Positions 27,942-49,769 are shown, counted from the stretch's first letter. The stretch: 64,000 nt of DNA from a virus (IMGVR_UViG_3300045988_162656), one strand, 5' to 3'. Made by a program: numbers and translations. The notes: a model not told the origin generated them from the letters alone.

Positions 27942-28156
27942 GCTGCCACCTCTTTGATTACATCAAATGCTGAATTAAATACGAGCACGATAGCCAAAGC
28001 GTTTATGACTACGTCGTGCACCGGGGAAAAGACTTTACGAATGACACCAGTGAAAATGCAGTCGATGACAAAAGCTATTGAAACGATGAGTAACAAGTAT
28101 TCAATAAAAATCTTCATGATAGGTAGATACTAACTTATATAAACTTTACTGTAAAC

Positions 28157-28432
28157 TCACTCAAAAGTGCTGATGCTTAAAATACGCTCAAGATGTTCAG
28201 CATCTTCATTACTGATTTGTTGAGTCTCTTCTACGTACCAACAGTTGCCGTTATGCCAACAAACACCATCATCATCAACCATCACTGAATCAGCGTCATG
28301 ACCTGTATATTCAACAAGAGTACGCTGGATCAGCGCGTCAGTTTCTTCATCGTTAAGGCCATCGACTTTGACCATAAAAAGCGGAAACACGTCATAGACA
28401 GTGCTGGTAACGATTCGAACTAAAACTCTCAT
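28157..28432 (-). CDS. hypothetical protein
   Basis: ORF track; conserved initiation region AAAGGAAAAACACATG. Confidence 0.5.
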   Translation of the reverse strand: MRVLVRIVTSTVYDVFPLFMVKVDGLNDEETDALIQRTLVEYTGHDADSVMVDDDGVCWHNGNCWYVEETQQISNEDAEHLERILSISTFE

Positions 28433-28487
28433 GTGTTTTTCCTTTTGTGGTTAGTGTTTACTTATTTTGTTAGTTATGAATAGGCGA

Positions 28488-28913
28488 TCAATCTTCTTGG
28501 TTAGGGAAAAACTGTTCAATAACTCTGTCAACGGCTGTGTCTATATGGAGTAGATGCCACACAACCATATCTTTGCTTCCCATGCCTTGTGTGAATATCA
28601 CGTCATACTTACGCCATGCGCAGTGGAACCAATATGCTGAGTCATCAATTGGTAAATCCTCTCCCGCCTCTTTGAAGTATTTCAGCAGCATTGCCTGCTC
28701 TGCCGTTGGCGTTGGACCTATTTCCTGAGCGTACATACGGATGAATCGCTGCCAGTCTGTCTCGTCGGGGGTTGGATCTGGTGGGGTCATTTCTGCGATA
28801 GCGTTTCGTAGCTGATGCGCCCAATCAGGTTCAGGAAAGCCTTTTGCTACTTCATCATCAATAACATCCAGAGCCACGTTTGCGGCATCGTAGAGTTTCT
28901 TAATTGCTGCCAT
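28488..28913 (-). CDS. hypothetical protein
   Basis: ORF track; SD AAGGAGAAG. Confidence 0.5.
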   Translation of the reverse strand: MAAIKKLYDAANVALDVIDDEVAKGFPEPDWAHQLRNAIAEMTPPDPTPDETDWQRFIRMYAQEIGPTPTAEQAMLLKYFKEAGEDLPIDDSAYWFHCAWRKYDVIFTQGMGSKDMVVWHLLHIDTAVDRVIEQFFPNQED

Positions 28914-28974
28914 GTTTACTTCTCCTTATAAATAGGAAAATAATCACCTTTGAAAAAATAAAGCAAAGATATAT

Positions 28975-29364
28975 TCACTCCGATACAAGACGTTTATATG
29001 CTTCGATGTCTCGACGTGCTTCACCGAGTTTTCTTCTTAGGTCCATATTTTCTGATTCAAGTTTTTCAATGTTTTTTTGGTATCGGCCACGATGTTCTTC
29101 CCAGGCATCCTGATATGCCTTCATATATGTCGTATTAGCCTTTCTTTTTGCCTGACGAACCGCGTGGTGATTTTCTACAAACCAGTCAGGGTCGTTAAAT
29201 GCTGCTCTTGCGCATTTATACCAATAATCGGTTGACTCTCTGTTTAACCAATGAATGGTGATAAATGGTAATCGAATAGACAGAATTTTTCGTTTGGAAT
29301 CTCGCTCACCAAACATATGCCCTTTTTTTATCTTTAAACCGAACCCAGGTTGAATTAAAAGCAT
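28975..29364 (-). CDS. hypothetical protein
   Basis: ORF track; SD TGAGGTA. Confidence 0.45.
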   Translation of the reverse strand: MLLIQPGFGLKIKKGHMFGERDSKRKILSIRLPFITIHWLNRESTDYWYKCARAAFNDPDWFVENHHAVRQAKRKANTTYMKAYQDAWEEHRGRYQKNIEKLESENMDLRRKLGEARRDIEAYKRLVSE

Positions 29365-29384
29365 TGTCAGTACCTCAGATGCAT

Positions 29385-30125
29385 TTATGGCAGTAATTCT
29401 TTACCGCTTTCCATTTTGGTGATAGAGACAGTAGGATCATCGTTAATGCATGATTCTGTGCCTAATGCTGCTAACCCTTTACGCATAACCGTGCCCGCAA
29501 CATACGCCTCAATCTCCGCCTTTCCAGATGAGACAATTTCATCCATTTGTTCCTGCATTAATTCGGTAGCAAAGCACAGATTTTCAGGAAGGTTAGCTAC
29601 AGCAGATGCTAGTTTTCTATATAGTTCTTCAAGGTCACGTTTTCCAGCTCTTCCTTTTTTCACAAGTTCACCTAGCTCTGAAACTTGCTGATTAAGTCGA
29701 TCAATCTCACTATTCGTAGCGGCCTTTATTTGATCGTTGAATTTTTGCCGAATACTTTTTTGCTCGGCAATATCATGAACTCTAATTGAGTCTCCAATGG
29801 TTTTATATGAAATAGTGCATGGCACACCTTCGCCCACTCCAAAACTGCTAACCATAGCAGCCCATTGTGCCTGGCTAAGTCTAATTTCAACTAAAGGCCG
29901 TCTATTGCAACTTCTTTGTGGGCGGGTTCGTTCATTGTCTAAGGACAGTTCCGCCTCGTAAACGCCTATTTCAATATAGTCTCTATGTTCCAGTTCTGAA
30001 TCAAATAGGCGAATGCCAGTTGTGCTAACACGGCTTGTTTTCACAAGACCGAACGCTGGATGTGTTTGAATTTTTTCCCCATGTTTATTAAGGGTCGTTT
30101 TTGGTTCTTCAATTTTTCTTTTCAT
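29385..30125 (-). CDS. hypothetical protein
   Basis: ORF track; SD AGAGGT. Confidence 0.5.
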   Translation of the reverse strand: MKRKIEEPKTTLNKHGEKIQTHPAFGLVKTSRVSTTGIRLFDSELEHRDYIEIGVYEAELSLDNERTRPQRSCNRRPLVEIRLSQAQWAAMVSSFGVGEGVPCTISYKTIGDSIRVHDIAEQKSIRQKFNDQIKAATNSEIDRLNQQVSELGELVKKGRAGKRDLEELYRKLASAVANLPENLCFATELMQEQMDEIVSSGKAEIEAYVAGTVMRKGLAALGTESCINDDPTVSITKMESGKELLP

Positions 30126-30172
30126 CTTATTAACCTCTATGCTTCATGCGTAAAGCTAAATGACAATTTTTT

Positions 30173-30997
30173 TTAATATCCGGCGTATTCGTATTCTTCA
30201 TTTAGACCGTATTCTTGTGGAGTGATACCAGGACAACATAACTCAAAGGCGAACTTGCGCCATTTGATTTTTTCTTCTGACGATTGTTTGTTATTCGCCG
30301 GTGCAATGTAGTCATATTCCCATTTGCCGTTGCGAAGTAAAATGAATCCGCAGTTATTGCCGAAGTCTTCGTCTGCATAACGTATTACAAACTCAAGGTG
30401 CGGGAACTTTCTAGCCATCGCTTGATAAATTGGTTTTGGCATAGACCAGGCTGTTTCAAAGCGAATCACCAACTCACCACCAGTTGCGGCATGTCTTGCA
30501 AGACGTTTTTTATAGATTCGTTTTGCATATGCTCGAACGTGTGTATGGCGGAAATTATGGCCGTACTTAATACGTGTAGGGATACGTTTTACGGGCATTT
30601 CGATGTTGTAGGCATTCCATTTTGTTCCCCAATTAGCTCGCGACCAGTCAAACCATGAGTAATAGCCATAGCGACGATAATTCTCAAGCCGCATAAGAGC
30701 CTGCTCTTTGATTTTGCGAATTTCCTTGCGTGTCATTCCTGATTCACGCATAGCTAATTCGACCTGTTCTGGAGTCTTTAATTCACCGAACATGTGGTCG
30801 TAAACTGTTTCGCCCGCCATTGCAGAGGCCATGCGCCTGATATGATTGTTTTCTTCCATTTCTATACTTTTCGGACGTCTGCAAATGGTATTAAAGTCAA
30901 TTAGACCTTTTTTGTTAGTTATGGCACGTATGAAATCTAAGCGTTGTTTATTTGTACCACCTATGACTCGGATTTCGTTTGTAATGTGGTTGGGCAT
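30173..30997 (-). CDS. hypothetical protein
   Basis: ORF track; AAACAATTTGTT palindrome plus SD upstream; contains WFDWSRANWGTKWN block that I cannot place. Confidence 0.5.
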   Translation of the reverse strand: MPNHITNEIRVIGGTNKQRLDFIRAITNKKGLIDFNTICRRPKSIEMEENNHIRRMASAMAGETVYDHMFGELKTPEQVELAMRESGMTRKEIRKIKEQALMRLENYRRYGYYSWFDWSRANWGTKWNAYNIEMPVKRIPTRIKYGHNFRHTHVRAYAKRIYKKRLARHAATGGELVIRFETAWSMPKPIYQAMARKFPHLEFVIRYADEDFGNNCGFILLRNGKWEYDYIAPANNKQSSEEKIKWRKFAFELCCPGITPQEYGLNEEYEYAGY

Positions 30998-31044
30998 AAT
31001 TAACTTAACCTTTTAACAAATTGTTTTCTTGTGTGTGATAATAA

Positions 31045-31074
31045 CGAGAATAAAACGGCGTCCAACTGGACGCC
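31045..31074 (-). terminator. rho-independent terminator after SPFH gene
   Basis: Stem GGCGTCC/GGACGCC then GTTTTATT on minus strand. Confidence 0.65.
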
Positions 31075-31092
31075 TGATCTTCTTAATGAGAG

Positions 31093-31923
31093 TTATTTCA
31101 CTGTAATGAAAGGAGTGTTAGCCCCTTGAGTCATGTACTGCGGTAACTGGCCATTCCATTTATTGATGGCTTCCAGTTCCATAACGTTCGGGTTTTGACG
31201 CAGAGCTTCACCGCGCAGACGAATGGCGTCTGCTTCTGCTTGCGCACGAGCACGGATAGCATCAGCTTCACCATTAGCCTGTTCACGTAGCATATTCGCC
31301 TCAGCTTTACGTTGTTCAACTTCCTGCTGACGTTGCAGAGTACGCTGGTTAGCCGTTACTTTGGCGTTGATAGATTCAATGACGGTTTTTGGGTAATCAG
31401 GCTTTCCAACCCATGACAGGCTCAGTACCTCAATACCAACCGGAGACATCTCTTTCTGAATATCTTTCAGTGCGTTGTCCAGCAATTGCGCCTTACCACC
31501 GTCGATAAATGAGTCAGTGGTCATACGGCTGGCCAAACGGTTTAGAGAGTCGGCAATTTTCTGACGCAGATCTGATTCGGTGATATCGTCTACGCCTTTG
31601 CGATAGGTCTGGAACACCGTCGTTACCTTGTCACGATTAACCAGATACGCAACGCCAATTTTGTGACCAATAGCAGTACCGTCACTCATCTGGAATGTGA
31701 ACGGTTCGTCGTAGGTCTTCATTTGTTTGAAGGTCGGGAATACGTAAAGTTCGGTGTTAAGACCTGTCCATTGGCGACCAACGCCAACCACTTCACCGAT
31801 CCCTTTGTCTTCACCTAATTTGTTTACTTTGATGCCAACGTATCCAGGCTCCACGCGATCACAGCCAGTAAGACCCATTGTGCAAATAGCCGCCAGAGCA
31901 ACTGCAAGTAAACCTTTCTTCAT
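31093..31923 (-). CDS. SPFH/band-7 domain lipoprotein
   Basis: Lipobox MGLTGC after signal peptide; SPFH-like core; C-terminal A/E/R-rich coiled coil. Confidence 0.7.
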   Translation of the reverse strand: MKKGLLAVALAAICTMGLTGCDRVEPGYVGIKVNKLGEDKGIGEVVGVGRQWTGLNTELYVFPTFKQMKTYDEPFTFQMSDGTAIGHKIGVAYLVNRDKVTTVFQTYRKGVDDITESDLRQKIADSLNRLASRMTTDSFIDGGKAQLLDNALKDIQKEMSPVGIEVLSLSWVGKPDYPKTVIESINAKVTANQRTLQRQQEVEQRKAEANMLREQANGEADAIRARAQAEADAIRLRGEALRQNPNVMELEAINKWNGQLPQYMTQGANTPFITVK

Positions 31924-39200: not shown

Positions 39201-39788
39201 TTTCATCGCCCGGACGTTAATCTGGTCGTAGAATGGGGTAGGGTGCGGATAAACCACACTATAGAAGTTGTCTTTTCCACCCGCTGTAATCAGTGTGCTT
39301 ATGATTTTTGCAAAATCGTTGCGTTGGAACACGCTACCGATGTCGGAAGTGAGCAGGATGATGTTGCCTTTGGCATATGTAGAAACCAACTGTTCGAGCG
39401 AGAGACGCGGTACAAAGTAGAACTGTTCTCGTGTGTTGGCCACCGTCATTAGTTCGCAGATGTCGCGATATCCTTGCTCATTTTTAATTAGAGCGGTAAA
39501 CGAGTAGTTACGTCCTCGCTCTAATGATTCCATACATCCCTTAGACTCTTTAGCAATTTTAGCCCGGTACTCGTATGTGGGATCATCAACAATGTTTAGT
39601 TTCACACCACAAATAACCGCCATGTCGTCACCAGCGGCACGTTGTAGTGGAATAACACTCGCAATATTCATGCTATCTGCCGAAATTACAGCGGTGTAGC
39701 CAGCTTCTCTGGCAATCTTCACCGCGTTTTCTGCTTTTAGAGCCGACTCCCCAAGAGAGAAGTCAGTTCGAACCATCAGAGCCTTCAT
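36270..39788 (-). CDS. dnaE: DnaE-type DNA polymerase III alpha-like replicative polymerase
   Basis: 1172 aa; block GFCGYFLMVRDLMNHSRETGIPVGPGRGSSAGSLVAWCIGITNVDP typical of DnaE family. Confidence 0.9.
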   Translation of the reverse strand: MKALMVRTDFSLGESALKAENAVKIAREAGYTAVISADSMNIASVIPLQRAAGDDMAVICGVKLNIVDDPTYEYRAKIAKESKGCMESLERGRNYSFTALIKNEQGYRDICELMTVANTREQFYFVPRLSLEQLVSTYAKGNIILLTSDIGSVFQRNDFAKIISTLITAGGKDNFYSVVYPHPTPFYDQINVRAMKVASALKIEPVAFYPAYYESIDDADIKDIAHMVTNNIKIDQPHRLRIPHQRDNAVNGRRHLLEALKTFSVRMDVPVTAAMASTTQDTIIDACTWRWHELPPALPKMADDEPATLMKLAVAGLRKRLTTKEFGYTPPASENRVYVERLKYEMDTLTRLGFCGYFLMVRDLMNHSRETGIPVGPGRGSSAGSLVAWCIGITNVDPIRHGLLFERFINPERLDLPDADLDFSQARRHEVIEYLNERYGEDYVAGIPNFTYLGAASALRDTARIYGVESADMAVSKELKNVEDDSLPLEELREQLASLDKYATKYPDAFNAACKLQSLMRGFGRHAAGMIVAGVPLTERTPVERRGDARCIAFDKRYCEAMGLIKLDVLGLATLDLLDSAKRYIKENTGEDINLDAISLEDRKVLDGFAAGYTQGVFQLESGPMRKLLKDLGGGIEPMSFKTVVATTALFRPGPIQSGMLDDYVSVAKGFMTPESLHPVLDELTAETNGVILYQEQTMNATRLLAGFTMAEADGVRKAIGKKDMEKMKSMGEKFIVQAQAGWIDVELEDGTTQRIHRAEHFKCEDGTLKTVEEALEYGAKLPINAVRVTASHPGLSEMKAKEIWTAFEKNGAYQFNKSHSVAYSLISYQSMWLKTHYPAEFFAAALTILGEDKHQGLVKDALTYGIRVLPPDVNVSSNRIEIRTLEDGSQVLYAPFSAVKGCSENGCQAIMRAREKVGGKFESLAQFEEAVEKRACNSRVRESLQKVGAFASIEPGSLPATDPERLRDQAELMGNLVIDAVKASRPFEMNPKRSAEINVLMTRMAAEMGLGDELIRPSIGIKPKIMIILDNANGNDARTGYFMENGYDDFKAKLLTAGDLRMGDLYVTGVCKKVKDKEKDYTKDEIGQFTDFIREEINLVRPTYVLTCGSRATALFNNKNKPSDLVGRKEYLPDLDVTVFYGFNPNILYFRPEEGERLEAILADVAETIKT

Positions 39789-43508: not shown

Positions 43509-43721
43509 TTAACAGGTTCTGACGGCTAAAGAGCCAGAGCCGGTATTGATAAGCGTGAAGCGTTTGTTATTAAGTAGGAATATAAAGGCTGTTGCGTCAT
43601 GCATACCAACCTGAATCTGCTCATTTGGTAATTCGGTGAGAATGTCAGCTACACATTCATCAGCTAATTTTTCAACGTGTCCGATCTCAAGAGTGATTAG
43701 GCTGGAAATAGTTGTTTTCAT
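43509..43721 (-). CDS. hypothetical protein
   Basis: ORF track; weak SD. Confidence 0.35.
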   Translation of the reverse strand: MKTTISSLITLEIGHVEKLADECVADILTELPNEQIQVGMHDATAFIFLLNNKRFTLINTGSGSLAVRTC

Positions 43722-43968
43722 TCAATCAATCCATTCTAACTTAAAGTATGGTAGGGAGTACTATTAAATCTTATATCATAATTGAACTTATCTATATCAT
43801 ATCTGAGTTAGTTTTGTTACATGTTATTAGTCGTTTTTCTCCATTAATGAATGCTGATTGGTTAATATTTGTGCCTGTAGAAAAAATGATTATATCTTTA
43901 CAACCCTAACCTTTGATGTAATATCGGTAAGCACTTACCAGAGAGTTTAACGCGCAAAGGTCGCAATA

Positions 43969-44355
43969 ATGTCTGACAAAAACATTGAATTTATAGAAAG
44001 TCGCTATGCTGCTTTTATCGCAGGGCTGATTGAATCCTCACCTATGAGTCAGGCCCAAATAGCCAGACTTATTGGTTATAAAAATGCCAACAACCTTTCT
44101 TTAATTAAAAGTGGTAAAATTCCTTTGCCTATCGATAAGGTTCGTCCGCTGGCGTTGGCGCTGGGTATTGAGCCAAGTCGTCTTATGATGATGGTGCTGG
44201 AAGAACGCCAACCTGAACTCGCAGCATTTTTATACAAAGAAGGCACCGCTCCTCTTAACGAGGACGAAAAACAGGTTCTTGCTGCATATAACGAGCGATT
44301 CGGTAAAGAGAAAGGCGCATCACAAAAGGTTGTTGAGGCCATAAAGTCTCTATGA
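43969..44355 (+). CDS. helix-turn-helix DNA-binding protein
   Basis: HTH-like segment SQAQIARLIGYKNANNLSLIKSGK; perfect palindrome GGTAAGCACTTACC ~30 bp upstream of the start. Confidence 0.6.
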   Translation: MSDKNIEFIESRYAAFIAGLIESSPMSQAQIARLIGYKNANNLSLIKSGKIPLPIDKVRPLALALGIEPSRLMMMVLEERQPELAAFLYKEGTAPLNEDEKQVLAAYNERFGKEKGASQKVVEAIKSL

Positions 44356-45453
44356 AAAATTTAGACGAATAAGCTCTGTTGATAGACGATCTCCCTTGAA
44401 TTTGTGGTCAATTTCGTCTAAATCCGGTTGCTCTACGATTGATGCGATGTACGTTGAGAAACTTTCTAAGGCGTCTCGCATCTCGTCCATATAATCGTGC
44501 CGGTCGTAGACCCGATCTATCCCCTCAAGACTGTGGTTCATTATTTTGCGTGATACCTCCTGGCTTATACCTAATGCTGGGAAGTAACTACGCGCAGTAC
44601 GACGCAAATCTCGAGGTGTAAATGGCGCAAGCTCCATCAGTTCTGGTCGTTCCAGAATACGACGTAATGCCTGGGCTATTGCCACTTTAGACATAGGAAG
44701 GTCTTTCCCGATTTTTTTATTCGAAGGCACGAGCCACTGGCTGTCTTTACCGTATTCGAACAACTCTTCAATGCATGTGCGCATTAATGTGCTTAAAGGC
44801 AGCGAATGCTCACGTGCTGACTTGTTTCTCTTGCCTTGATTCCAAACTCCACGCTTAAGATTGAACTCACTTTTTTTAGCCCTCAGTACTTCGTCAGGTC
44901 GTCTTGCTGATACAAGACACAGCCTGGCCGCCCATTTTGTACCAGCGCACACATTGAAGTAGTCCCATATATTCCAGAACACCCATACCTCTGCGTCGGT
45001 CAGCTTCCGCTCGCGAGGTGTGGGCTTTGCGCCACCGGCAACTTTGTTTAGTGACATATCGTTTAACGGTGACACGTCTATCATCCCCTGGAAGGCGCAC
45101 CAGCTAAGGAACTGCTTCATCAGAGAGAAAACGCGGCGGCCCATAACAATTTTGCCATCCAATATTAGAGGGTTGACCAGTTGGTTAACCATGAACCTAT
45201 TAATGTCACTTACTTTTACATCAGCAATGTGCGGCAAAACATGTATCAAAATACAATGAACAGCGATCTCTGGCCGACGTCTGGTTATCAGCAGAGATAA
45301 GCGAGTGAATAACATGAATGCGTCCGAGAATATCATGTTATTGTTGATCTGTGAGATCATAATGGCCTGCATTTGAGATGCTCTTTCGAGATACTCAATT
45401 GCCTCTTTTGAGGTGTTTTCTGCTGCGCGTGCTCTGTCAAAGCTATTTTTCAT
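44350..45453 (-). CDS. int: tyrosine recombinase / integrase
   Basis: Catalytic-region motifs ARRPDEVLRAK, FTPRDLRRTARSY, MNHS...IDRVYDRHDY (C-terminal tyrosine). Confidence 0.75.
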   Translation of the reverse strand: MKNSFDRARAAENTSKEAIEYLERASQMQAIMISQINNNMIFSDAFMLFTRLSLLITRRRPEIAVHCILIHVLPHIADVKVSDINRFMVNQLVNPLILDGKIVMGRRVFSLMKQFLSWCAFQGMIDVSPLNDMSLNKVAGGAKPTPRERKLTDAEVWVFWNIWDYFNVCAGTKWAARLCLVSARRPDEVLRAKKSEFNLKRGVWNQGKRNKSAREHSLPLSTLMRTCIEELFEYGKDSQWLVPSNKKIGKDLPMSKVAIAQALRRILERPELMELAPFTPRDLRRTARSYFPALGISQEVSRKIMNHSLEGIDRVYDRHDYMDEMRDALESFSTYIASIVEQPDLDEIDHKFKGDRLSTELIRLNFS

Positions 45454-45549
45454 TTATTGGCATTCACCTAGTTACGCTGATCACCTGTATAAGTAACCAG
45501 TATATTAGGCATTGATTCTTTTGGAATCAAGCTAAAATCTTTCATGCGG

Positions 45550-45586
45550 AAAATGATTCCATACCTAAAGAGTATGGAATCATTTT
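45550..45586. terminator. long hairpin, possible bidirectional terminator after esterase gene
   Basis: 14-bp stem AAAATGATTCCATA/TATGGAATCATTTT with T-run on plus side. Confidence 0.5.
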
Positions 45587-45660
45587 TTTCTGTAGAGCTA
45601 GTTTTAAATATTTGATTCGATATGAAGCCAGGCAATTTCATGCCTGGCTGTTACTTTGTG

Positions 45661-47574
45661 TTAGGTTGGGTTGTTGATGCTAATGGTAAGTGTTTCGATA
45701 GCAAGATCATGAGTTTGGTTGTTTGTTATATCTGTTAAAACAAAAGCCTCATCACCAAGAGCAATATTGTCTTTAACCAGCTTGAATTTACTCCCCGCCT
45801 TGCCATCGAGAACGGGAATTACAGTTCCTGTGCCTTTCTCATATTGCAACTCAAGAGTGTGCCAATTGTTGTCGTAGTCACCATATGAGTCTATCTGAAC
45901 ATTTCGATTATTGCCTGTCCTGTGCATCATAATGTTCAACTTGCCTCCAATTGTTTGAAGGAAGAAGTTAGCCAGAAACAGGCTCCCAGTACCGTCGAAT
46001 GATATATCGTCAGCAACAGGTTTACTGGTTTTGTAATATATACCAAAGCCAAACTTAGCTTTTTTTGGATCAGGGTTTCCAGATAATTTAAACTTACAAA
46101 GTAATTTACCTCCATTCTCAAGAAGAGTCTGTGCTATGTCAGTAGCTTTACTGATCGTCCAAGTTTCGTTGGAAACCGCTTTAGTTAAAGCAATTGCTTT
46201 TCCGTTTTCAACTGACTGAATATTTGCACCAGTTACAGTCCATCCTTGTTCAGTAGCGACATCACCACCAGCTCCAGTTAAGGAAATAACCGTTCGCGGG
46301 GTTGGAGTTGTGACAATGTTGTCATTTTTAGGTTGAGTAGGTTGTTCTTGTTTAATAATCTCACCTGTAACGCCATTCACAAAAGCAGATGATTTCGCTG
46401 AATGTGCAAGCAGCGCAGTTGCGAGACGATCAGATATTATTCCGCGTCGCTGCCATGAACCAAAATGACTCTCTCTACTCTCGGAAGTCCATGTTTTATT
46501 ATCCTTGCGATGACCGGAACCATAATAGCCAATAGATGTGATGTCTGGATCATCTGTAGGGCTATTGGTTAATACGTTATTATCATTCTCATCTTTCATG
46601 AATGGAACGAAATAAATTGCTTGTGAGGTTTTTCCCTTATAACCACCATAAACAATTTCGTACTGTTTTGGATATTTGTTTTTCCACCAGTGGGTCGTAT
46701 CGCCACAAATCCAGGGTACATTTGCAGCACTTCCGAAAACACATTGTGCGTCGTATTGAGATAGCTCTTTTCTGAAACCTTCGACCATCTTGAGGAACAG
46801 TTCGTTATGCTGCGAGTACTTGCCAGTTGCCAAATCAGCTTCGCCTTGCATCCAGACAACACCAAGAAATACATTCTTTTTGTTTTTACTTAAGGCCGCT
46901 TTTGTTCTGGCTACAATATCCTTATACAAAGGAGTATTTAATCCCCATTTTAAAGATGATTCGATTGCACCTGACTCTTCATAATATTGGCCTTCAGAGC
47001 CTGTAACAGTGAAACCAGAACCACCTCTTCCGCAAGGAACGAGCAAAATACCTGCGTTTGCTGGAATGAATGGTAATAGTTTTTTGCCAATGTGTAGTCC
47101 CTGACCAACACATCCATATTCAGAGTCGTTTGCTTTTGGATGCTTGAATTTAGTCATGTCTTGTACATCATGAAGACAGTGATCAGCGGGAATTATTTCA
47201 TTGTACTTACAGGCAAAACCACCAGGTTTAATATTGCTGCGTCGAGCTAACTGTTTTACGCGAGGATGTGGCCGATCAAAAGTTTTTGGCATAGGCAGTC
47301 CTTCGCCGTATGACATTGAGTTGGATTGACCTGCGATAGTAACTACATAATAATAGTCAGGCTCTTCATCTTCATTTGATACCGGTGTGGGCAATTGTGA
47401 TAAATCACCAGATCGCACAATTGCTTGATTGTACGCATTTGGTCCGCCCTTACTTGGTTCAACAATGTTTGGTGACTCGAAAGGTTGCCAACCCTCTGCG
47501 ATTTTCTTCGCAAGTTTTTCTCTAAGCTCTTTGCTTGATGATGCTGACAAAATATCATAGTCAATGAATGACAT
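45661..47574 (-). CDS. SGNH-type carbohydrate esterase (sialate O-acetylesterase-like) with C-terminal beta-rich domain
   Basis: Motif YYVVTIAGQSNSMSYG resembles the GQSN block of SGNH/O-acetylesterases; SD AAAGGAG. Confidence 0.6.
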   Translation of the reverse strand: MSFIDYDILSASSSKELREKLAKKIAEGWQPFESPNIVEPSKGGPNAYNQAIVRSGDLSQLPTPVSNEDEEPDYYYVVTIAGQSNSMSYGEGLPMPKTFDRPHPRVKQLARRSNIKPGGFACKYNEIIPADHCLHDVQDMTKFKHPKANDSEYGCVGQGLHIGKKLLPFIPANAGILLVPCGRGGSGFTVTGSEGQYYEESGAIESSLKWGLNTPLYKDIVARTKAALSKNKKNVFLGVVWMQGEADLATGKYSQHNELFLKMVEGFRKELSQYDAQCVFGSAANVPWICGDTTHWWKNKYPKQYEIVYGGYKGKTSQAIYFVPFMKDENDNNVLTNSPTDDPDITSIGYYGSGHRKDNKTWTSESRESHFGSWQRRGIISDRLATALLAHSAKSSAFVNGVTGEIIKQEQPTQPKNDNIVTTPTPRTVISLTGAGGDVATEQGWTVTGANIQSVENGKAIALTKAVSNETWTISKATDIAQTLLENGGKLLCKFKLSGNPDPKKAKFGFGIYYKTSKPVADDISFDGTGSLFLANFFLQTIGGKLNIMMHRTGNNRNVQIDSYGDYDNNWHTLELQYEKGTGTVIPVLDGKAGSKFKLVKDNIALGDEAFVLTDITNNQTHDLAIETLTISINNPT

Positions 47575-47799
47575 AATCGTTACTCCTTTAACGATAAACT
47601 TTAGCTAAAATCGATACGATTTTAGCAGTTAAAAAACGACAATAAAATATAAGAGTAATGTATGAAAGAACAATAAAAATTGCGTAAATGGATATGTGTA
47701 AAATATGTGGAATTTCACACACAGCGTTGAGCGGTCTGGTTTATGTTAGCGGAGTCTTAATCGAGTTGATTAAAAGGCCAAACCGCTCAACGCTGTGTC

Positions 47800-47886
47800 T
47801 GGCGGAGAGTAATGGAATCGAACCATCATCGCTTGCGCAATGGGACGGTTTTCAAGACCGCTTGAGCACCATGCTCCCTACTCTCC
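47800..47886 (-). tRNA. tRNA-Ser (anticodon UGA), type II
   Basis: Hand-folded: acceptor GGAGAGT/ACTCTCC, anticodon arm GCGGT-CTTGAAA-ACCGT, long variable arm, T-loop TTCGATT, encoded CCA; D-arm atypical. Confidence 0.7.
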
Positions 47887-48110
47887 GGCCGTTGTGGTGG
47901 CCGGTACTGAATCTCCGGCATACGGTGCAGCCAATTAGGACTACGGACGATCACCGCTCGCGAAAGGGAAGATTTGCGGCCGCATTTCCCTAACATCCAA
48001 GAAAGCTATCGCATTAGTCTGCGAATCCACCACAACGGTAAGATCACTACCTTTCGACCAGTCATTGTGCACATGAACGACGATTAACCGTAATGATCTT
48101 ATCGTTGTAT

Positions 48111-48186
48111 TGGTGCCGGTTAGCGGACTCGAACCGCTGACATCCTGCTTACAAGGCAGGCGCTCTACCAACTGAGCTAAACCGGC
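48111..48186 (-). tRNA. tRNA-Thr (anticodon UGU)
   Basis: Hand-folded cloverleaf: acceptor GCCGGTT/AACCGGC, D-arm GCTC-AGTTGGTA-GAGC, anticodon loop CTTGTAA, T-loop TTCGAGT, CCA. Confidence 0.85.
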
Positions 48187-48190
48187 AATT

Positions 48191-48277
48191 TGGTGGGGAG
48201 TGATGGAGTCGAACCACCCGAGTTGCAATGACAGTAGATTTACAGTCTACCCAGCTGCCCCTACGGACTAACTCCCC
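48191..48277 (-). tRNA. tRNA-Tyr (anticodon GUA), type II
   Basis: Acceptor GGGGAGT/ACTCCCC, anticodon arm GTAGA-CTGTAAA-TCTAC, long variable arm, T-loop TTCGACT, CCA. Confidence 0.8.
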
Positions 48278-48282
48278 TAAAT

Positions 48283-48357
48283 TGGCGATGGTGGGTGGAT
48301 TCGAACCACCGACCAGTTGGTTAACAGCCAACTGCTCTACCGCTGAGCTACACCATC
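48283..48357 (-). tRNA. tRNA-Asn (anticodon GUU)
   Basis: Acceptor GATGGTG/CACCATC, D-arm GCTC-AGCGGTA-GAGC, anticodon arm GTTGG-CTGTTAA-CCAAC, T-loop TTCGAAT, CCA. Confidence 0.85.
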
Positions 48358-49117
48358 AATTCAGCACTGCCAGTATTTATTACTCAACAGTGCCAATCGC
48401 GGCGGTGTTAGTTTCTGCCAGGAAACGCACCGCTACTTGCACTTTTTCGTTAGTGTCAGACGCTTTCGACTTCTCTCAATAGAAGGCAAAATCTTTAAGT
48501 AGATGATGTTTCTGAGGACAGCACCTACTTTGTAATTTATACAATGTGATGTATGGAATCATTTGTTGTGGAAAAGTGGTTAAACCTACACAACAATCCT
48601 GTCTTCACAACGTTGAGGCCACTACTCCGATTGAATGTTTGCCCAACATGTTACATATCAACGCTCGCCGGTATCTCTGTGAATAGAACCTTAGAATTGA
48701 TAAAAATGTAATGGCCTCAACGTTGTGTGCTGGCTAACCATACCAGCCGGGCTACGTCGCCGCTTTTTAACCCAGTATAAACGACATAATTGAACAAAAT
48801 GACGTAACAGAATGGGCGGTCAGTGGCTAAGAATCCGGGAGTCATATGGAGTTGAAAATATACCGACCGCCCATTCTGTTACTTCATCGGAGGGAACATG
48901 AGTGTTCCCTCCTGCGTTCTGCAATCACACTCGCTCAGTGTGTCCCATTTCGGTAACGAGGCTGGAAACTGACCTCGCTGGTGTTTGGCTTATTAGGCTA
49001 CTGCCAGATAGACTTCTTCGTTTGCACTTGTATTTAAGTTCAAACAGTCGCATCTCAACGAAAACAAAGTCATCTTATACACAAAGGATAAGTAAGTAAA
49101 TACTTATCGATATGTTT

Positions 49118-49408: not shown

Positions 49409-49553
49409 TTTCTAACCTTTGTTTCATGAACTACCCGATACACACGCTTTCCGATGCACAGTGTTTTGGTTTTAAGTTCCTGCTTAATTAAATCACGACA
49501 GATGCCGAAGCCGATAAGGAAGCCACCAATAAAAGCTAATGAGATGTATGGAA
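49405..49553 (-). CDS. small membrane protein (~49 aa)
   Basis: Hand-translated MIPYISLAFIGGFLIGFGIC...; SD AGGAG 8 nt upstream; stop overlaps next start; not in ORF track. Confidence 0.35.
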
Positions 49554-49769
49554 TCATTTTAACACTCCTGATTCTACTAATTGCTGTAGCAATACTTTCC
49601 CTTTATCAGTTAACTGGTAGTTGGCTGAGCACCACGTTTCCGAAATGTTTGCAACCAACCCTAAACGCTCTAAATTAGCTCGCGTTTTAGGCTTCCAGTA
49701 CTGAGGGAACTCCGGCCACTTACTTATTTCATGAAGCGTTTCTTTCTCCCGTTTACTTAATACGATCAT
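49554..49769 (-). CDS. hypothetical protein
   Basis: ORF track; start overlaps ligase stop. Confidence 0.45.
   Translation of the reverse strand: MIVLSKREKETLHEISKWPEFPQYWKPKTRANLERLGLVANISETWCSANYQLTDKGKVLLQQLVESGVLK

Follow-up and report, generated by a model that had tools for sequence, protein, structure and literature searches.

The Cre/loxP system of P1 serves plasmid multimer resolution (PMC7969092). Both Cre/loxP and Dre/rox of D6 rely on a phage-plasmid tyrosine recombinase that lacks an arm-binding domain, and loxP, a single simple site that adjoins the recombinase gene, has a short asymmetric spacer of 8 bp between two inverted arms of 13 bp each. Dimer resolution at a simple palindromic site is also the task of XerH/difH, XerS/difSL and ResD/rfsF of F, and in all three the recombinase gene adjoins its site. 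In TnpI/IRS of Tn4430 the resolution site of a tyrosine recombinase pairs an inverted-repeat core with further copies of its binding motif; these serve as accessory sites and lie within ~116 bp on one side of the core. The overlap region of lambda is 7 bp, and LexA control is known for integron integrases.

Here we analysed a window (the whole 64,000-nt stretch, from virus IMGVR_UViG_3300045988_162656) in which the gene of a tyrosine recombinase, Int, is adjoined by a perfect palindrome. We put at roughly 0.6 the probability that the two work as a recombinase-site module of the Cre/loxP kind, whose most likely use is the resolution of plasmid multimers. As in Cre/loxP, a single simple site, made up of two inverted 13-bp arms and a short asymmetric spacer, lies next to the gene, and Int would act on it. 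However, Int is no sequence relative of Cre, its spacer measures 7 bp rather than 8 bp, R281 stands for the first catalytic His, the promoter carries a LexA box and oriented single-arm copies flank the site.

Phage-plasmid context

The window is an SSU5/pHCM2-type phage-plasmid, and the first-pass annotation was correct in placing it in a phage-plasmid context. It is ~99% identical to p09EL50 of E. coli O104:H4 (98-99.5% identity including Shigella sonnei plasmids) and has Cyrano and PhiR41_1 as phage relatives. Membership of the SSU5 supergroup (pSLy3/pHCM2-like) is borne out by a plasmid of ~105-115 kb with siphovirus structural genes, RepB/ParB, dnaE, cobS/cobT, ligase and nrdAB. The persistent genes of this supergroup include tyrosine recombinases (PMC7969092). 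The features of the locus are as follows.

43509-43721, minus strand: conserved 70-aa ORF (phrog_2627 at 3e-39)
43969-44355, plus strand: HTH protein, 128 aa, with weak Pfam HTH_19 and HTH_37 matches
44350-45453, minus strand: Int, tyrosine recombinase, 367 aa (Pfam PF00589 and PF22022)
45483-45530, minus strand: putative int promoter, read from sequence
45552-45584, unstranded: perfect palindrome, proposed recombination core site of Int
~45587-47717, minus strand: variable cargo cassette with the esterase gene, delimited by a homology break in relatives
45661-47574, minus strand: NanS-p-type sialate 9-O-acetylesterase, 637 aa (Pfam DUF1737, SASA, DUF6645)
47716-47801, unstranded: long hairpin (inverted repeat, stem ~20-24 bp, loop 38 nt), right border of the cargo slot
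47800-48357, minus strand: tRNA array Ser(TGA), Thr(TGT), Tyr(GTA), Asn(GTT) (ARAGORN and Rfam)
47800-47886, minus strand: tRNA-Ser (ARAGORN)

All genes and tRNAs of the first-pass annotation were present where it had placed them. The int and HTH ORFs do converge, lying tail-to-tail with a 6-bp overlap that is kept in relatives; the 5′ end of int is ~2.35 kb from the 3′ end of tRNA-Ser (given as 2.3 kb), and the 637-aa esterase gene lies in between.

The 70-aa ORF, int and the HTH gene convergent with it belong to the syntenic core; they were found in 252 of 5,426 complete E. coli genomes, and there on plasmids only. All 255 places of the int module across these genomes are plasmid-borne, and none of the genomes holds a chromosomal copy of the module or of the 33-bp site. 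Beside cobT/cobS/dnaE, the order 70-aa ORF-HTH-int is kept in E. coli, Klebsiella, Kluyvera, Citrobacter, Buttiauxella and a Y. pestis contig, with the 70-aa ORF annotated at the same position in every relative examined. Most int homologues are carried by contigs of ~100-120 kb and a few by contigs of 0.3-0.9 Mb.

The HTH protein matches a phrog_8 transcriptional regulator at 7e-12, is kept at protein level in a second int clade and is probably the prophage repressor. Its Cyrano homologue, CYRAN_45 ('putative repressor'), is transcribed 10-fold over background in the lysogen (PMC9928086).

Int and the adjoining palindrome

Int matches Phage_integrase at 1.1e-9 and Phage_int_M at 9.5e-5 in Pfam, with a PF00589 score of 38.7 bits against a cut-off of 27.1, and consists of a core-binding and a catalytic domain without an arm-binding domain. 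In a profile alignment with lambda Int, the catalytic residues come out as R185, K211, R281-x-x-R284, H307 and Y316, of which R185, K211, R284, H307 and Y316 correspond to lambda R212, K235, R311, H333 and Y342, while Arg (R281) replaces the first catalytic His. Both these residues and the two-domain fold are those of the tyrosine recombinase superfamily. The AF2 model (pLDDT 86, N-terminus all-helical) has lambda Int 75-356, Tn1549 Int and XerH as its top Foldseek matches; the probability is 1.0 for these three and for IntI and Cre, and the core-binding domain matches PDB 2kj5 at 3e-15.

By sequence Int does not belong to the Cre family: phmmer against PDB returned no match at E <= 0.01, a profile search found lambda Int, XerD and XerH with Cre not among them, and the Foldseek match to Cre has E ~1e-2 at ~11% identity. 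Nor is it an integron integrase, IntI being a distant structural match only (E ~4e-4, 13% identity).

The closest proteins in sequence and in the fold of the core-binding and catalytic domains are lambda Int, CP4-57 IntA and PRK09692, and this closeness to lambda/P4-type enzymes makes an integrative ancestry clear. Members of the Int clade carry PF00589 with or without PF22022, and Pfam gave no match to the arm-binding PF13356 in Int or its clade members. The next tier of relatives (<=33% identity) has PF13356. Int looks like a simple-site enzyme because this arm-binding domain of its nearest integrase relatives is missing. It differs from lambda/P4-type integrases further in having no arm-type sites, no tRNA-derived att site and no integration into E. 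coli chromosomes, and in that its site is a perfect palindrome. A heterobivalent integrase of the lambda/P4 type is therefore not what we find, PF13356, chromosomal copies and tRNA direct repeats all being absent.

The palindrome, AATGATTCCATAC-CTAAAGA-GTATGGAATCATT, has a 13-7-13 structure that extends to 15-7-15 over 45550-45586 and lies 99 bp upstream of int. It is the sole such site in the 109-kb plasmid, with one per plasmid. Only ~0.002 chance occurrences of the exact 13-mer arm are expected in the window, and perfect inverted repeats of the same class number 4 in the 109-kb plasmid against 0.13 expected.

Palindrome and int are strictly coupled, both physically and in evolution. When viral contigs were found by the palindrome alone, 76 of 80 had an Int homologue (47-100% identity) 39-99 bp away, always in the same orientation with the int 5′ end facing the site; in the remaining 4 the palindrome is at or near the end of the stored DNA. 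Rahnella, Pantoea (two) and Erwinia have replicons or contigs of 437-723 kb with a solitary int homologue. The genes around these four homologues are unrelated and not of phage type, and the HTH partner is missing, yet the palindrome is retained 17-142 bp upstream in every case. Judging by their size, these 0.44-0.72 Mb replicons or contigs are presumably plasmids. Moreover, arm variants track the Int clade symmetrically, from ATGATTCCATAC to TGTGATTCCATAC...GTATGGAATCACA to TGTGACTCCAGAC...GTCTGGAGTCACA, and because the arms co-vary with the Int clade we infer that Int binds, and probably recombines, the palindrome. The spacer is 7 bp in every clade, inside the 6-8 bp range usual for tyrosine recombinases. 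With two inverted arms of ~11-13 bp, a 6-8 bp spacer and no accessory arm sites needed, the site has the make-up of a Cre/loxP-type site.

Isolated arms were also found at a distance from the palindrome.

48551-48563, minus strand: single arm copy (AATGATTCCATAC, then ATC), ~195 bp upstream of the tRNA array
49546-49558, minus strand: single arm copy that overlaps the start codon of an ORF for a 50-aa membrane protein (MIPYI...)
39523-39535, plus strand: single arm copy within the dnaE ORF, on its antisense strand; the sense strand codes for CMESL
44835-44847, plus strand: degenerate arm copy CTTGATTCCAAAC within the int ORF

The first of these keeps its position in E. coli relatives and Klebsiella, and the dnaE copy is kept in Klebsiella, Kluyvera, the Y. 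pestis contig and a second E. coli clade. Many relatives with Int of 56-86% identity have an intact version (TGATTCCATAC) of the int-internal copy, which lies at ~+721 to +735 relative to the palindrome and encodes VWNQ, including the invariant W204. The copies at 48551, 49546 and 39523 are all oriented toward the palindrome. Unlike the accessory motifs of TnpI/IRS, the single arms of the window lie 0.7-7 kb off and on both sides, and they are wholly missing in the distant clade. Such oriented copies have no role in a simple Cre/lox model, which counts against one here.

Between the palindrome and int we read a putative promoter with a -35 of TTGATT (45530-45525), a 17-nt spacer and a -10 of TAATAT (45507-45502); it agrees with the consensus at 8 of 12 positions, under the threshold of the scan tool, and was therefore not listed by the scan. 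A LexA-box-like CTG-N10-CAG follows the -10 at 45485-45500, its first half-site being CTGG and not CTGT in the window. In close relatives the CTG-N10-CAG box, mostly TACTGT-N8-ACAGTA, likewise sits between palindrome and int, and a box of this type is present in 62/62 contigs with Int of at least 78% identity, in 4/10 at 55-62% and in 0/4 below 50%. On these grounds int in close SSU5-like relatives is predicted to be transcribed from a LexA-box promoter.

The palindrome is just upstream of this promoter and overlaps it in more distant relatives, and it forms a stable hairpin (z ~ -7) with A and T runs flanking it in the window. One alternative is that it serves not as a crossover site but as an operator, bound by Int, the HTH repressor or some other protein, or else as a terminator or insulator that separates cargo from int; the dispersed single arms, too, resemble operators of a monomer-binding repressor. 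However, the arm is invariant and shows no compensatory changes, its low GC makes a poor terminator, the T-run is missing in most relatives, and the palindrome is kept where the HTH gene is missing. Its constant partner is a recombinase that appears catalytically intact, and a role as Int operator would not conflict with crossover and is common among recombination sites. We regard a purely regulatory element as quite unlikely.

Possible roles in multimer resolution, integration or induction

If the palindrome is the site of Int, two monomers would bind its two inverted arms, and two Int-occupied sites would synapse and exchange strands across the 7-bp spacer. The main job of such a reaction in a plasmid prophage would be to return the dimers and multimers formed by homologous recombination to monomers, which would secure faithful segregation of a low-copy replicon. 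Through the LexA box, int expression would go up along with recombination and prophage induction, and autorepression by Int is possible, given the position of the palindrome just upstream of or over the int promoter.

The first-pass annotation had listed a dimer-resolution recombinase among its options without seeing the lox-like site adjoining int; with the site in hand this option is favoured, the role itself being one we assign by inference. On p09EL50 no recombinase besides Int is annotated and no cer/dif-like Xer site was found; the lack of an obvious alternative resolution system favours Int as the resolvase. Compared with the Xer modules, Int is of a different sequence family and plasmid- or phage-borne rather than chromosomal, there is no sign of FtsK dependence, and the polar elements are arm copies and not KOPS. 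Against this reading, LexA repression is odd for a housekeeping resolvase, the box is missing in the distant clade, and Int resembles lambda/P4-type integrases more than Cre in both sequence and fold.

Two further options had been an integrative island nested in the phage-plasmid and a tRNA-targeting integration module, in which Int would insert the phage-plasmid or the island into the chromosome or a tRNA gene with the palindrome as attP. Int does come from the lambda/P4 integrase lineage, the tRNA array is close to int, and a few Int homologues are on very large contigs. However, a search for the tRNA-Ser 3′ end around the supposed island, proposed as a check, gave no direct repeats of this or any other tRNA 3′ end; the sole significant tRNA-Ser match is the inverted partner in the adjacent hairpin. 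The palindrome itself is symmetric and unrelated to any tRNA, Int has no arm-binding domain, and no Xis-like partner is evident. Comparison with relatives, also proposed, did reveal a variable segment (~45587-47717, the esterase cassette), but int is outside it, a core gene at the same position and without att-like repeats. Neither int (0/255 copies) nor the 33-bp site is chromosomal in the 5,426 E. coli genomes. The large-contig copies appear to share the neighbours of the plasmid copies within 10 kb on each side, and any fusion junction would therefore not be at the palindrome. We reject both the nested island and tRNA integration because of core synteny, plasmid-only distribution and the absence of tRNA-derived att repeats, and hold an integrative function to be very unlikely, although Int might conceivably have some integrative ability outside E. 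coli.

The LexA box also bears on a role in the lytic cycle, in which SOS-induced int transcription would mainly serve induction, with plasmid maintenance secondary, either by antisense read-through of the repressor gene into 70-aa ORF-cobT-cobS-dnaE or by Int cyclising or processing phage DNA. The box is conserved, as is the int-HTH tail-to-tail overlap, and no peptidase domain was detected in the HTH protein with Pfam or phrog. Cyrano, moreover, is induced 39-fold by ciprofloxacin (PMC9928086). However, int and palindrome occur on large replicons without LexA box, HTH gene or phage genes, and the palindrome is distant from the packaging genes; it is ~41 kb from the terminase genes, and P1-like cyclising of infecting DNA is therefore unsupported by its position. 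A mainly lytic role thus seems improbable to us, and multimer resolution remains the preferred reading.

Cargo slot and esterase

On its other side the palindrome borders a hypervariable slot that ends at the hairpin beside tRNA-Ser. Homology to most relatives ends at ~45585 and restarts at 47718, and the 76 contigs show 31 distinct cargo-side flanks, starting 0-30 nt from the outer arm, with the int side conserved. Across the window and its relatives the slot holds NanS-p, GrxA, AbiGi, YafO, PhoH, Ail/Lom, an ars operon and what looks like a fimbrial operon. The hairpin abuts the tRNA-Ser 3′ end; across E. coli and Klebsiella its loop is variable but its stems do not change. The tRNA content differs as well: among relatives it runs from Ser-Thr-Tyr-Asn through Asn only to no tRNA in the stretch fetched.

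These flanks, the great diversity of cargo and the LexA box controlling int would suit SOS-controlled cargo exchange, in which Int recombines the palindrome with sites or pseudo-sites elsewhere and captures adjacent genes in the manner of integron attI. However, none of the cargo is flanked by another full site or by a hybrid one, and the outer arm is always intact, placing the junctions outside the site and not in the spacer. Cargo lies in both orientations, with its own promoters and multi-gene operons, and IS elements account for some of the insertions. The other border is equally sharp at the conserved hairpin/terminator, as expected if cargo is replaced through homologous recombination within conserved flanks. 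Cargo exchange by Int is accordingly unlikely in our judgement. No repeated hairpin sites bounding cargo in integron style were found, and the resemblance to integrons is limited to LexA control and a variable region adjoining the site.

The esterase is optional cargo in this slot, outside the recombination machinery. Its cassette, in which the ORF is preceded by an AGGAG ribosome-binding site and followed by a GC hairpin (45626-45649), occurs in 4 of the 5,426 complete E. coli genomes, in each case on a plasmid.

The first-pass label of SGNH esterase holds at superfamily level; the specific family is SASA/NanS. SASA (PF03629) reaches 43.6 bits (cut-off 24.8), and PF08410 and PF20350 are matched as well. 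Residues 67-389 match E. coli NanS (PDB 3pt5, E = 6e-116) with the GQSN block conserved, residues 441-634 match a NanS-p C-domain (PDB 6yp6, E = 5e-26), and phrog_143 is matched at 2e-270. From this sequence evidence the protein is a divergent NanS-p-type sialate O-acetylesterase, with the SASA domain, GQSN block and three-domain architecture of NanS/NanS-p: a DUF1737 N-domain of the capsid-binding type, a SASA catalytic domain and a lectin-like DUF6645 C-domain. The same full-length architecture is found in NanS-p of 933W and phi24B gp84, and in phi24B the DUF1737 domain decorates the capsid (bioRxiv 10.64898/2026.04.10.717836; PMC10462455). The NanS-p family removes 9-O-acetyl groups from sialic acids. 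Action on O-antigen, as had been suggested, is unlikely for a full-length NanS-p homologue whose catalytic domain matches E. coli NanS.

The esterase shares 45-50% identity over residues 1-635 with NanS-p of 933W, VT2-Sakai and other Stx phages but forms a separate branch, and tblastn found 341 phage records covering at least 80% of it. It makes up its own 90% cluster, with one relative at 88% identity. Whereas the Stx-phage genes lie downstream of stx in a late operon, this one sits next to int in the cargo slot of a siphovirus-type phage-plasmid.

Setting and conservation of the integrase locus

The DNA is that of an SSU5/pHCM2-type phage-plasmid. Between 43400 and 48400 it shares 98-99.5% identity with p09EL50, the 109-kb phage-plasmid of E. 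coli O104:H4 2009EL-2050, and with Shigella sonnei plasmids, and phages Cyrano and PhiR41_1 are also relatives. The positions of ORFs and tRNAs in the first-pass annotation were all borne out:

43509-43721, minus strand: hyp70, a 70-aa ORF
43969-44355, plus strand: HTH ORF
44350-45453, minus strand: tyrosine recombinase Int (Pfam Phage_integrase, 1.1e-9, and a weaker Phage_int_M match)
45661-47574, minus strand: esterase of 637 aa (DUF1737, SASA and DUF6645 domains)
47800-48357, minus strand: tRNA-Ser, Thr, Tyr and Asn

The module is flanked by cobT-like and cobS-like AAA/VWA genes, dnaE and an ATP-dependent ligase gene. The int and HTH genes always overlap tail to tail, and the HTH homologue in Cyrano is a 'putative repressor' that is expressed in the lysogen.

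It had been suggested that int belongs to an integrative island nested within the phage-plasmid, to a tRNA-targeting integration module or to a dimer-resolution system. The genes dnaE, cobS, cobT, hyp70, HTH and int keep the same order in elements of E. coli, Klebsiella, Kluyvera, Citrobacter and Buttiauxella, and also on a Y. pestis contig; the scan of genome contigs returned 5 loci and no more. Of 5,426 complete E. coli genomes, 252 carry the hyp70-HTH-int segment, at 255 places that are all plasmid-borne (255/255, 0 chromosomal), whereas the esterase segment occurs in only 4 genomes. Searches of E. coli chromosomes with the int module, the esterase or the bare palindrome described below found 0 copies. 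Homology to other relatives breaks off at ~45585 and picks up again at 47718. By these sequence comparisons int is a core gene and the esterase optional cargo, which refutes the nested island: int is syntenic across relatives and, in E. coli, confined to plasmids, and only the esterase segment varies. The idea of tRNA-targeted integration fails as well, since a search to both sides of int and the esterase found no direct repeats of the 3' ends of tRNA-Ser or of the tRNA array. The sole significant match related to tRNA-Ser is the inverted partner of a hairpin directly adjoining that gene. Dimer resolution is the best supported of the three suggestions. Overall the locus is mostly ordinary: the recombinase is a core gene of the phage-plasmid, the cargo gene is optional and there is no island.

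An exact 15-nt direct repeat, GACCAGTTGGTTAAC, does occur at 45175-45189 and in tRNA-Asn at 48311-48325 (~0.01 expected here). One copy lies inside the int coding region and the repeat therefore cannot be the att site of an island; it is probably due to chance.

A lox-like palindrome coupled to int

A perfect inverted repeat, AATGATTCCATAC-N7-GTATGGAATCATT, lies at 45552-45584, 99 bp upstream of the int start codon. When int-upstream regions are aligned, homology stops exactly at its outer edge. Even in Klebsiella, with flanks of ~73% identity, the arms are unchanged, and the 7-bp spacer varies by lineage. It is the single such site in the 109-kb plasmid, in which perfect inverted repeats of its class number 4 against 0.13 expected. 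Two other perfect inverted repeats of p09EL50, at 77487-77514 and 93176-93204, have 11-bp arms (TGATGATTCAG-N6-CTGAATCATCA, within cobT, and TATATTGGGCG-N7-CGCCCAATATA).

Scanning viral contigs with a degenerate version of the palindrome alone retrieved 80 loci with a single site apiece. At 76 of these an Int homologue (47-100% identity) begins 39-99 bp away with its 5' end facing the palindrome, and in the remaining 4 the palindrome lies at or near the end of the stored DNA. Moreover, the arms change symmetrically as Int diverges, while the spacer stays at 7 bp throughout, in at least 17 sequence variants.

Palindrome arms by identity of Int to that of the window
At least 78%: (A/T)ATGATTCCATAC
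56-60%: mostly TGTGATTCCATAC...GTATGGAATCACA
47-49%: TGTGACTCCAGAC...GTCTGGAGTCACA

Four further int homologues (~45-49% identity) stand alone among unrelated metabolic, transport and regulatory genes, with neither phage genes nor an HTH partner. They are found on complete records of Rahnella victoriana (723 kb) and Pantoea vagans (508 kb) and on 437-kb contigs of Erwinia and Pantoea allii, and in all four cases (4/4) a 13-7-13 palindrome precedes the gene by 17-142 bp. What is conserved is therefore the site together with int, which argues against the HTH protein as the binder of the palindrome and against a mere terminator. A second int clade was considered as a natural HTH knock-out and set aside because its HTH is homologous at the protein level; the solitary copies served instead. 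A Ter-like fork trap was rejected, as there is no GC-skew switch at the palindrome and it does not lie opposite repB. A protelomerase target was also discarded, given the asymmetric spacer, the circular records and a protein that fits neither in size nor in family. Taken together, these data suggest that Int acts on the palindrome, with a probability that we put at roughly 0.8.

The spacer (45565-45571) occurs in both orientations relative to int in 4 separate lineage pairs (among loci L002-L011, L024-L103 and L145-L146), as the exact reverse complements CTACTAT/ATAGTAG, CTATTAA/TTAATAG, TCTATAG/CTATAGA and TTATATA/TATATAA. Such pairs point to repeated inversion of a short hairpin loop, probably by hairpin-mediated template switching. 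Since the spacer has flipped repeatedly, the polarity of the site relative to int appears unconstrained, which is compatible with a resolution site.

The exact 13-mer arm has three further copies in the window besides the palindrome, and a degenerate copy lies within int:

39523-39535, plus strand: single arm, antisense, inside dnaE
44835-44847: degenerate arm copy, inside int
48551-48563, minus strand: single arm, upstream of the tRNA array
49546-49558, minus strand: single arm, spanning the start codon of a 50-aa ORF

No more copies were found elsewhere in the plasmid. The positions of single arms are conserved among relatives, and both in the window and in the 80 viral contigs they flank the palindrome on both sides at distances of 0.7-7 kb. 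All 94 single arms in the viral contigs (94/94) face the palindrome, 41/41 from one side and 53/53 from the other; they fall into only ~4-5 positional classes, so that shared polarity would arise by chance about once in 8 to 16. None was found in the TGACTCCAGAC clade, solitary modules included, and no degenerate second arm beside the single copies is conserved by eye. The single arms may be accessory Int-binding sites. With five copies in 109 kb, all within ~6 kb of int, the 13-mer is no genome-wide operator or late-promoter box. We also dismissed '-10-like' hexamers after the single arms, which are inconsistent and partly due to a coding sequence (MIPYI-stop).

Int and its proposed role in multimer resolution

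The Int clade is compact, reaching down to ~43-44% identity across Enterobacterales, mostly on contigs of ~100-120 kb; a few homologues, close ones included, sit on far larger contigs of 0.3-0.9 Mb. Its members carry PF00589 with or without PF22022 and lack the arm-binding domain PF13356 that marks the next tier (at most 33% identity), the P4-type integrases. In a PDB profile search Int aligns with lambda Int, giving R185, K211, R281-x-x-R284, H307 and Y316, with the first catalytic His replaced by Arg. The AF2 model (pLDDT 86) has an all-helical N-terminus and matches lambda Int (75-356), Tn1549 Int, XerH, XerA and IntI; Cre, in contrast, matches it at an E of only about 1e-2. Int is therefore of integrase-lineage descent, yet has the build of a simple-site recombinase.

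We propose that Int and the palindrome would act like Cre/loxP of P1, with Int binding both arms and exchanging strands across the 7-bp spacer. Its main role would be to resolve multimers of the plasmid prophage and, likewise, of the large replicons on which the module stands alone. We judge multimer resolution to be the probable main function, if by a smaller margin of confidence than action on the site itself. This reading draws on the plasmid-only distribution, on Int being the sole recombinase annotated on p09EL50, where a search for a cer/dif-like Xer site found none, on the persistence of tyrosine recombinase genes in the SSU5 supergroup and on the multimer-resolution role stated for P1 Cre (PMC7969092). 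Cyclisation of infecting DNA is given less weight, because ~41 kb separate the palindrome from the terminase genes.

Between the palindrome and int, a putative promoter (TTGATT-17-TAATAT) was read by eye; it matches at 8/12 positions and falls under the threshold of the scan tool. It is followed at 45485-45500 by a LexA-box-like CTG-N10-CAG, of which one half-site is weakened in the window (CTGG).

LexA-like box by Int identity
At least 78%: 62/62 contigs, mostly TACTGT-N8-ACAGTA
55-62%: 4/10 contigs
Below 50%: 0/4 contigs

SOS control would supply more Int as RecA-driven multimerisation and prophage induction rise; Cyrano is induced 39-fold by ciprofloxacin (PMC9928086). Given the tail overlap of int with a gene whose homologue is a putative repressor, SOS-driven int transcription might even disturb the repressor gene, although this is speculation.

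The system belongs with known simple tyrosine recombinase/site systems. We found nothing relevant in the searchable literature on the motif or on a recombination site of SSU5, pHCM2 or pMT1; on that basis, what is new here is the 33-bp lox-like site cognate to Int, its coupling with Int throughout the family, the SOS box and the oriented copies of the arm. SSU5-like phage-plasmids are common in Enterobacterales and carry resistance, defence and virulence cargo, and the job of their conserved 'integrase' has so far been undefined. A precise 33-bp site offers a testable model of how such low-copy elements stay monomeric and would explain why a non-integrating phage retains an integrase. With its natural spacer variants and two arm specificities, the family is also a candidate orthogonal recombinase/site system for genome engineering.

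The cargo slot and its esterase

The variable segment beside the palindrome is the main cargo hotspot, and the site is its exact border, which helps to predict where accessory genes arise. In relatives the slot holds GrxA with a gene of unknown function, GrxA with AbiGi, a YafO toxin, PhoH with Ail/Lom, an ars operon, or an AraC-type regulator with large genes resembling a fimbrial operon. In the 152-kb pB379_2 it contains a complete arsRDABC operon with IS26 and Tn3 fragments, indicating that IS-mediated insertions also load the slot. CYRAN_43 of Cyrano (L005, 5324-5878), which adjoins the palindrome, is transcribed 723-fold above background in the lysogen and is by far the most transcribed Cyrano gene there (PMC9928086), which fits a moron slot.

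On the left the hotspot ends at the outer arm of the palindrome. Cargo-side flanks are of 31 distinct kinds among the 76 contigs. Across the viral loci (L024-L103) they have nothing in common but a degenerate A-tract motif (agaaTTTcAAAAAAtcg), ~10-30 nt beyond the arm, which may belong to the site as a bend or as an element for an accessory factor; the window is atypical here (45587-45615). The right border is a hairpin (47716-47801; stem of 20-24 bp, loop of 38 nt) that abuts the 3' end of tRNA-Ser. Its stems are invariant from E. coli to Klebsiella and its loop is variable, and it might be a terminator or processing signal. Most E. coli relatives share ~100 bp more at this border, a stretch that contains a GC-rich hairpin resembling a terminator. 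That both borders are sharp and coincide with functional elements fits replacement via recombination in conserved flanks; taken alone, it falls short of demonstrating Int-mediated capture. A bolder reading is that Int and the palindrome form an SOS-triggered platform that would recombine with other replicons and load cargo (NanS-p, defence systems, toxins, ars, fimbriae) beside the site. The oriented single arms would then be polar accessory or steering sites converging on the crossover point, as KOPS do on dif. If true, the lox-like site would be the basis of a gene-capture system akin to an integron; we regard this reading as improbable.

From residue 1 to residue 635 the esterase is 45-50% identical to the NanS-p proteins of Stx and other lambdoid prophages, and thus homologous to them over its full length; coverage of at least 80% is reached in 341 phage records. 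E. coli NanS (PDB 3pt5) aligns with residues 67-389 at E = 6e-116, the GQSN block being conserved, and the lectin-like C-domain of phi24B NanS-p (PDB 6yp6) aligns with residues 441-634 at E = 5e-26. It forms a separate branch, with a 90% cluster of 127 sequences, one 88% relative and then nothing above 63%; the 88% relative occupies the same slot in another SSU5-like element, whose junction and spacer differ from those seen here. NanS-p enzymes remove acetyl groups from the 9-O-acetylated sialic acids of mucin (PMC10462455). Therefore, modification of O-antigen is unlikely. By homology, mucin-sialic-acid esterases of the type known from Stx prophages would also ride a plasmid prophage in O104:H4 and Shigella sonnei. 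In phi24B the capsid is decorated by the DUF1737 domain (bioRxiv 10.64898/2026.04.10.717836).

Lastly, several minor features lie outside the slot. An Rfam beta_tmRNA match at 48942-49044 (17 bits against a gathering score of 84, E = 0.029) is almost certainly noise. In p09EL50, chromosomal-type metG (methionyl-tRNA synthetase) and apbC adjoin an S24 peptidase gene (28005-31296). The tRNA cluster (47800-48357) is ~93% identical to those of the P1-like phage-plasmids P7 and D6 and ~78% identical to N4-like phage clusters. SSU5-like relatives differ in tRNA content, from four down to one or none, and p09EL50 differs from the window by an insertion of 266 bp between tRNA-Ser and tRNA-Thr.
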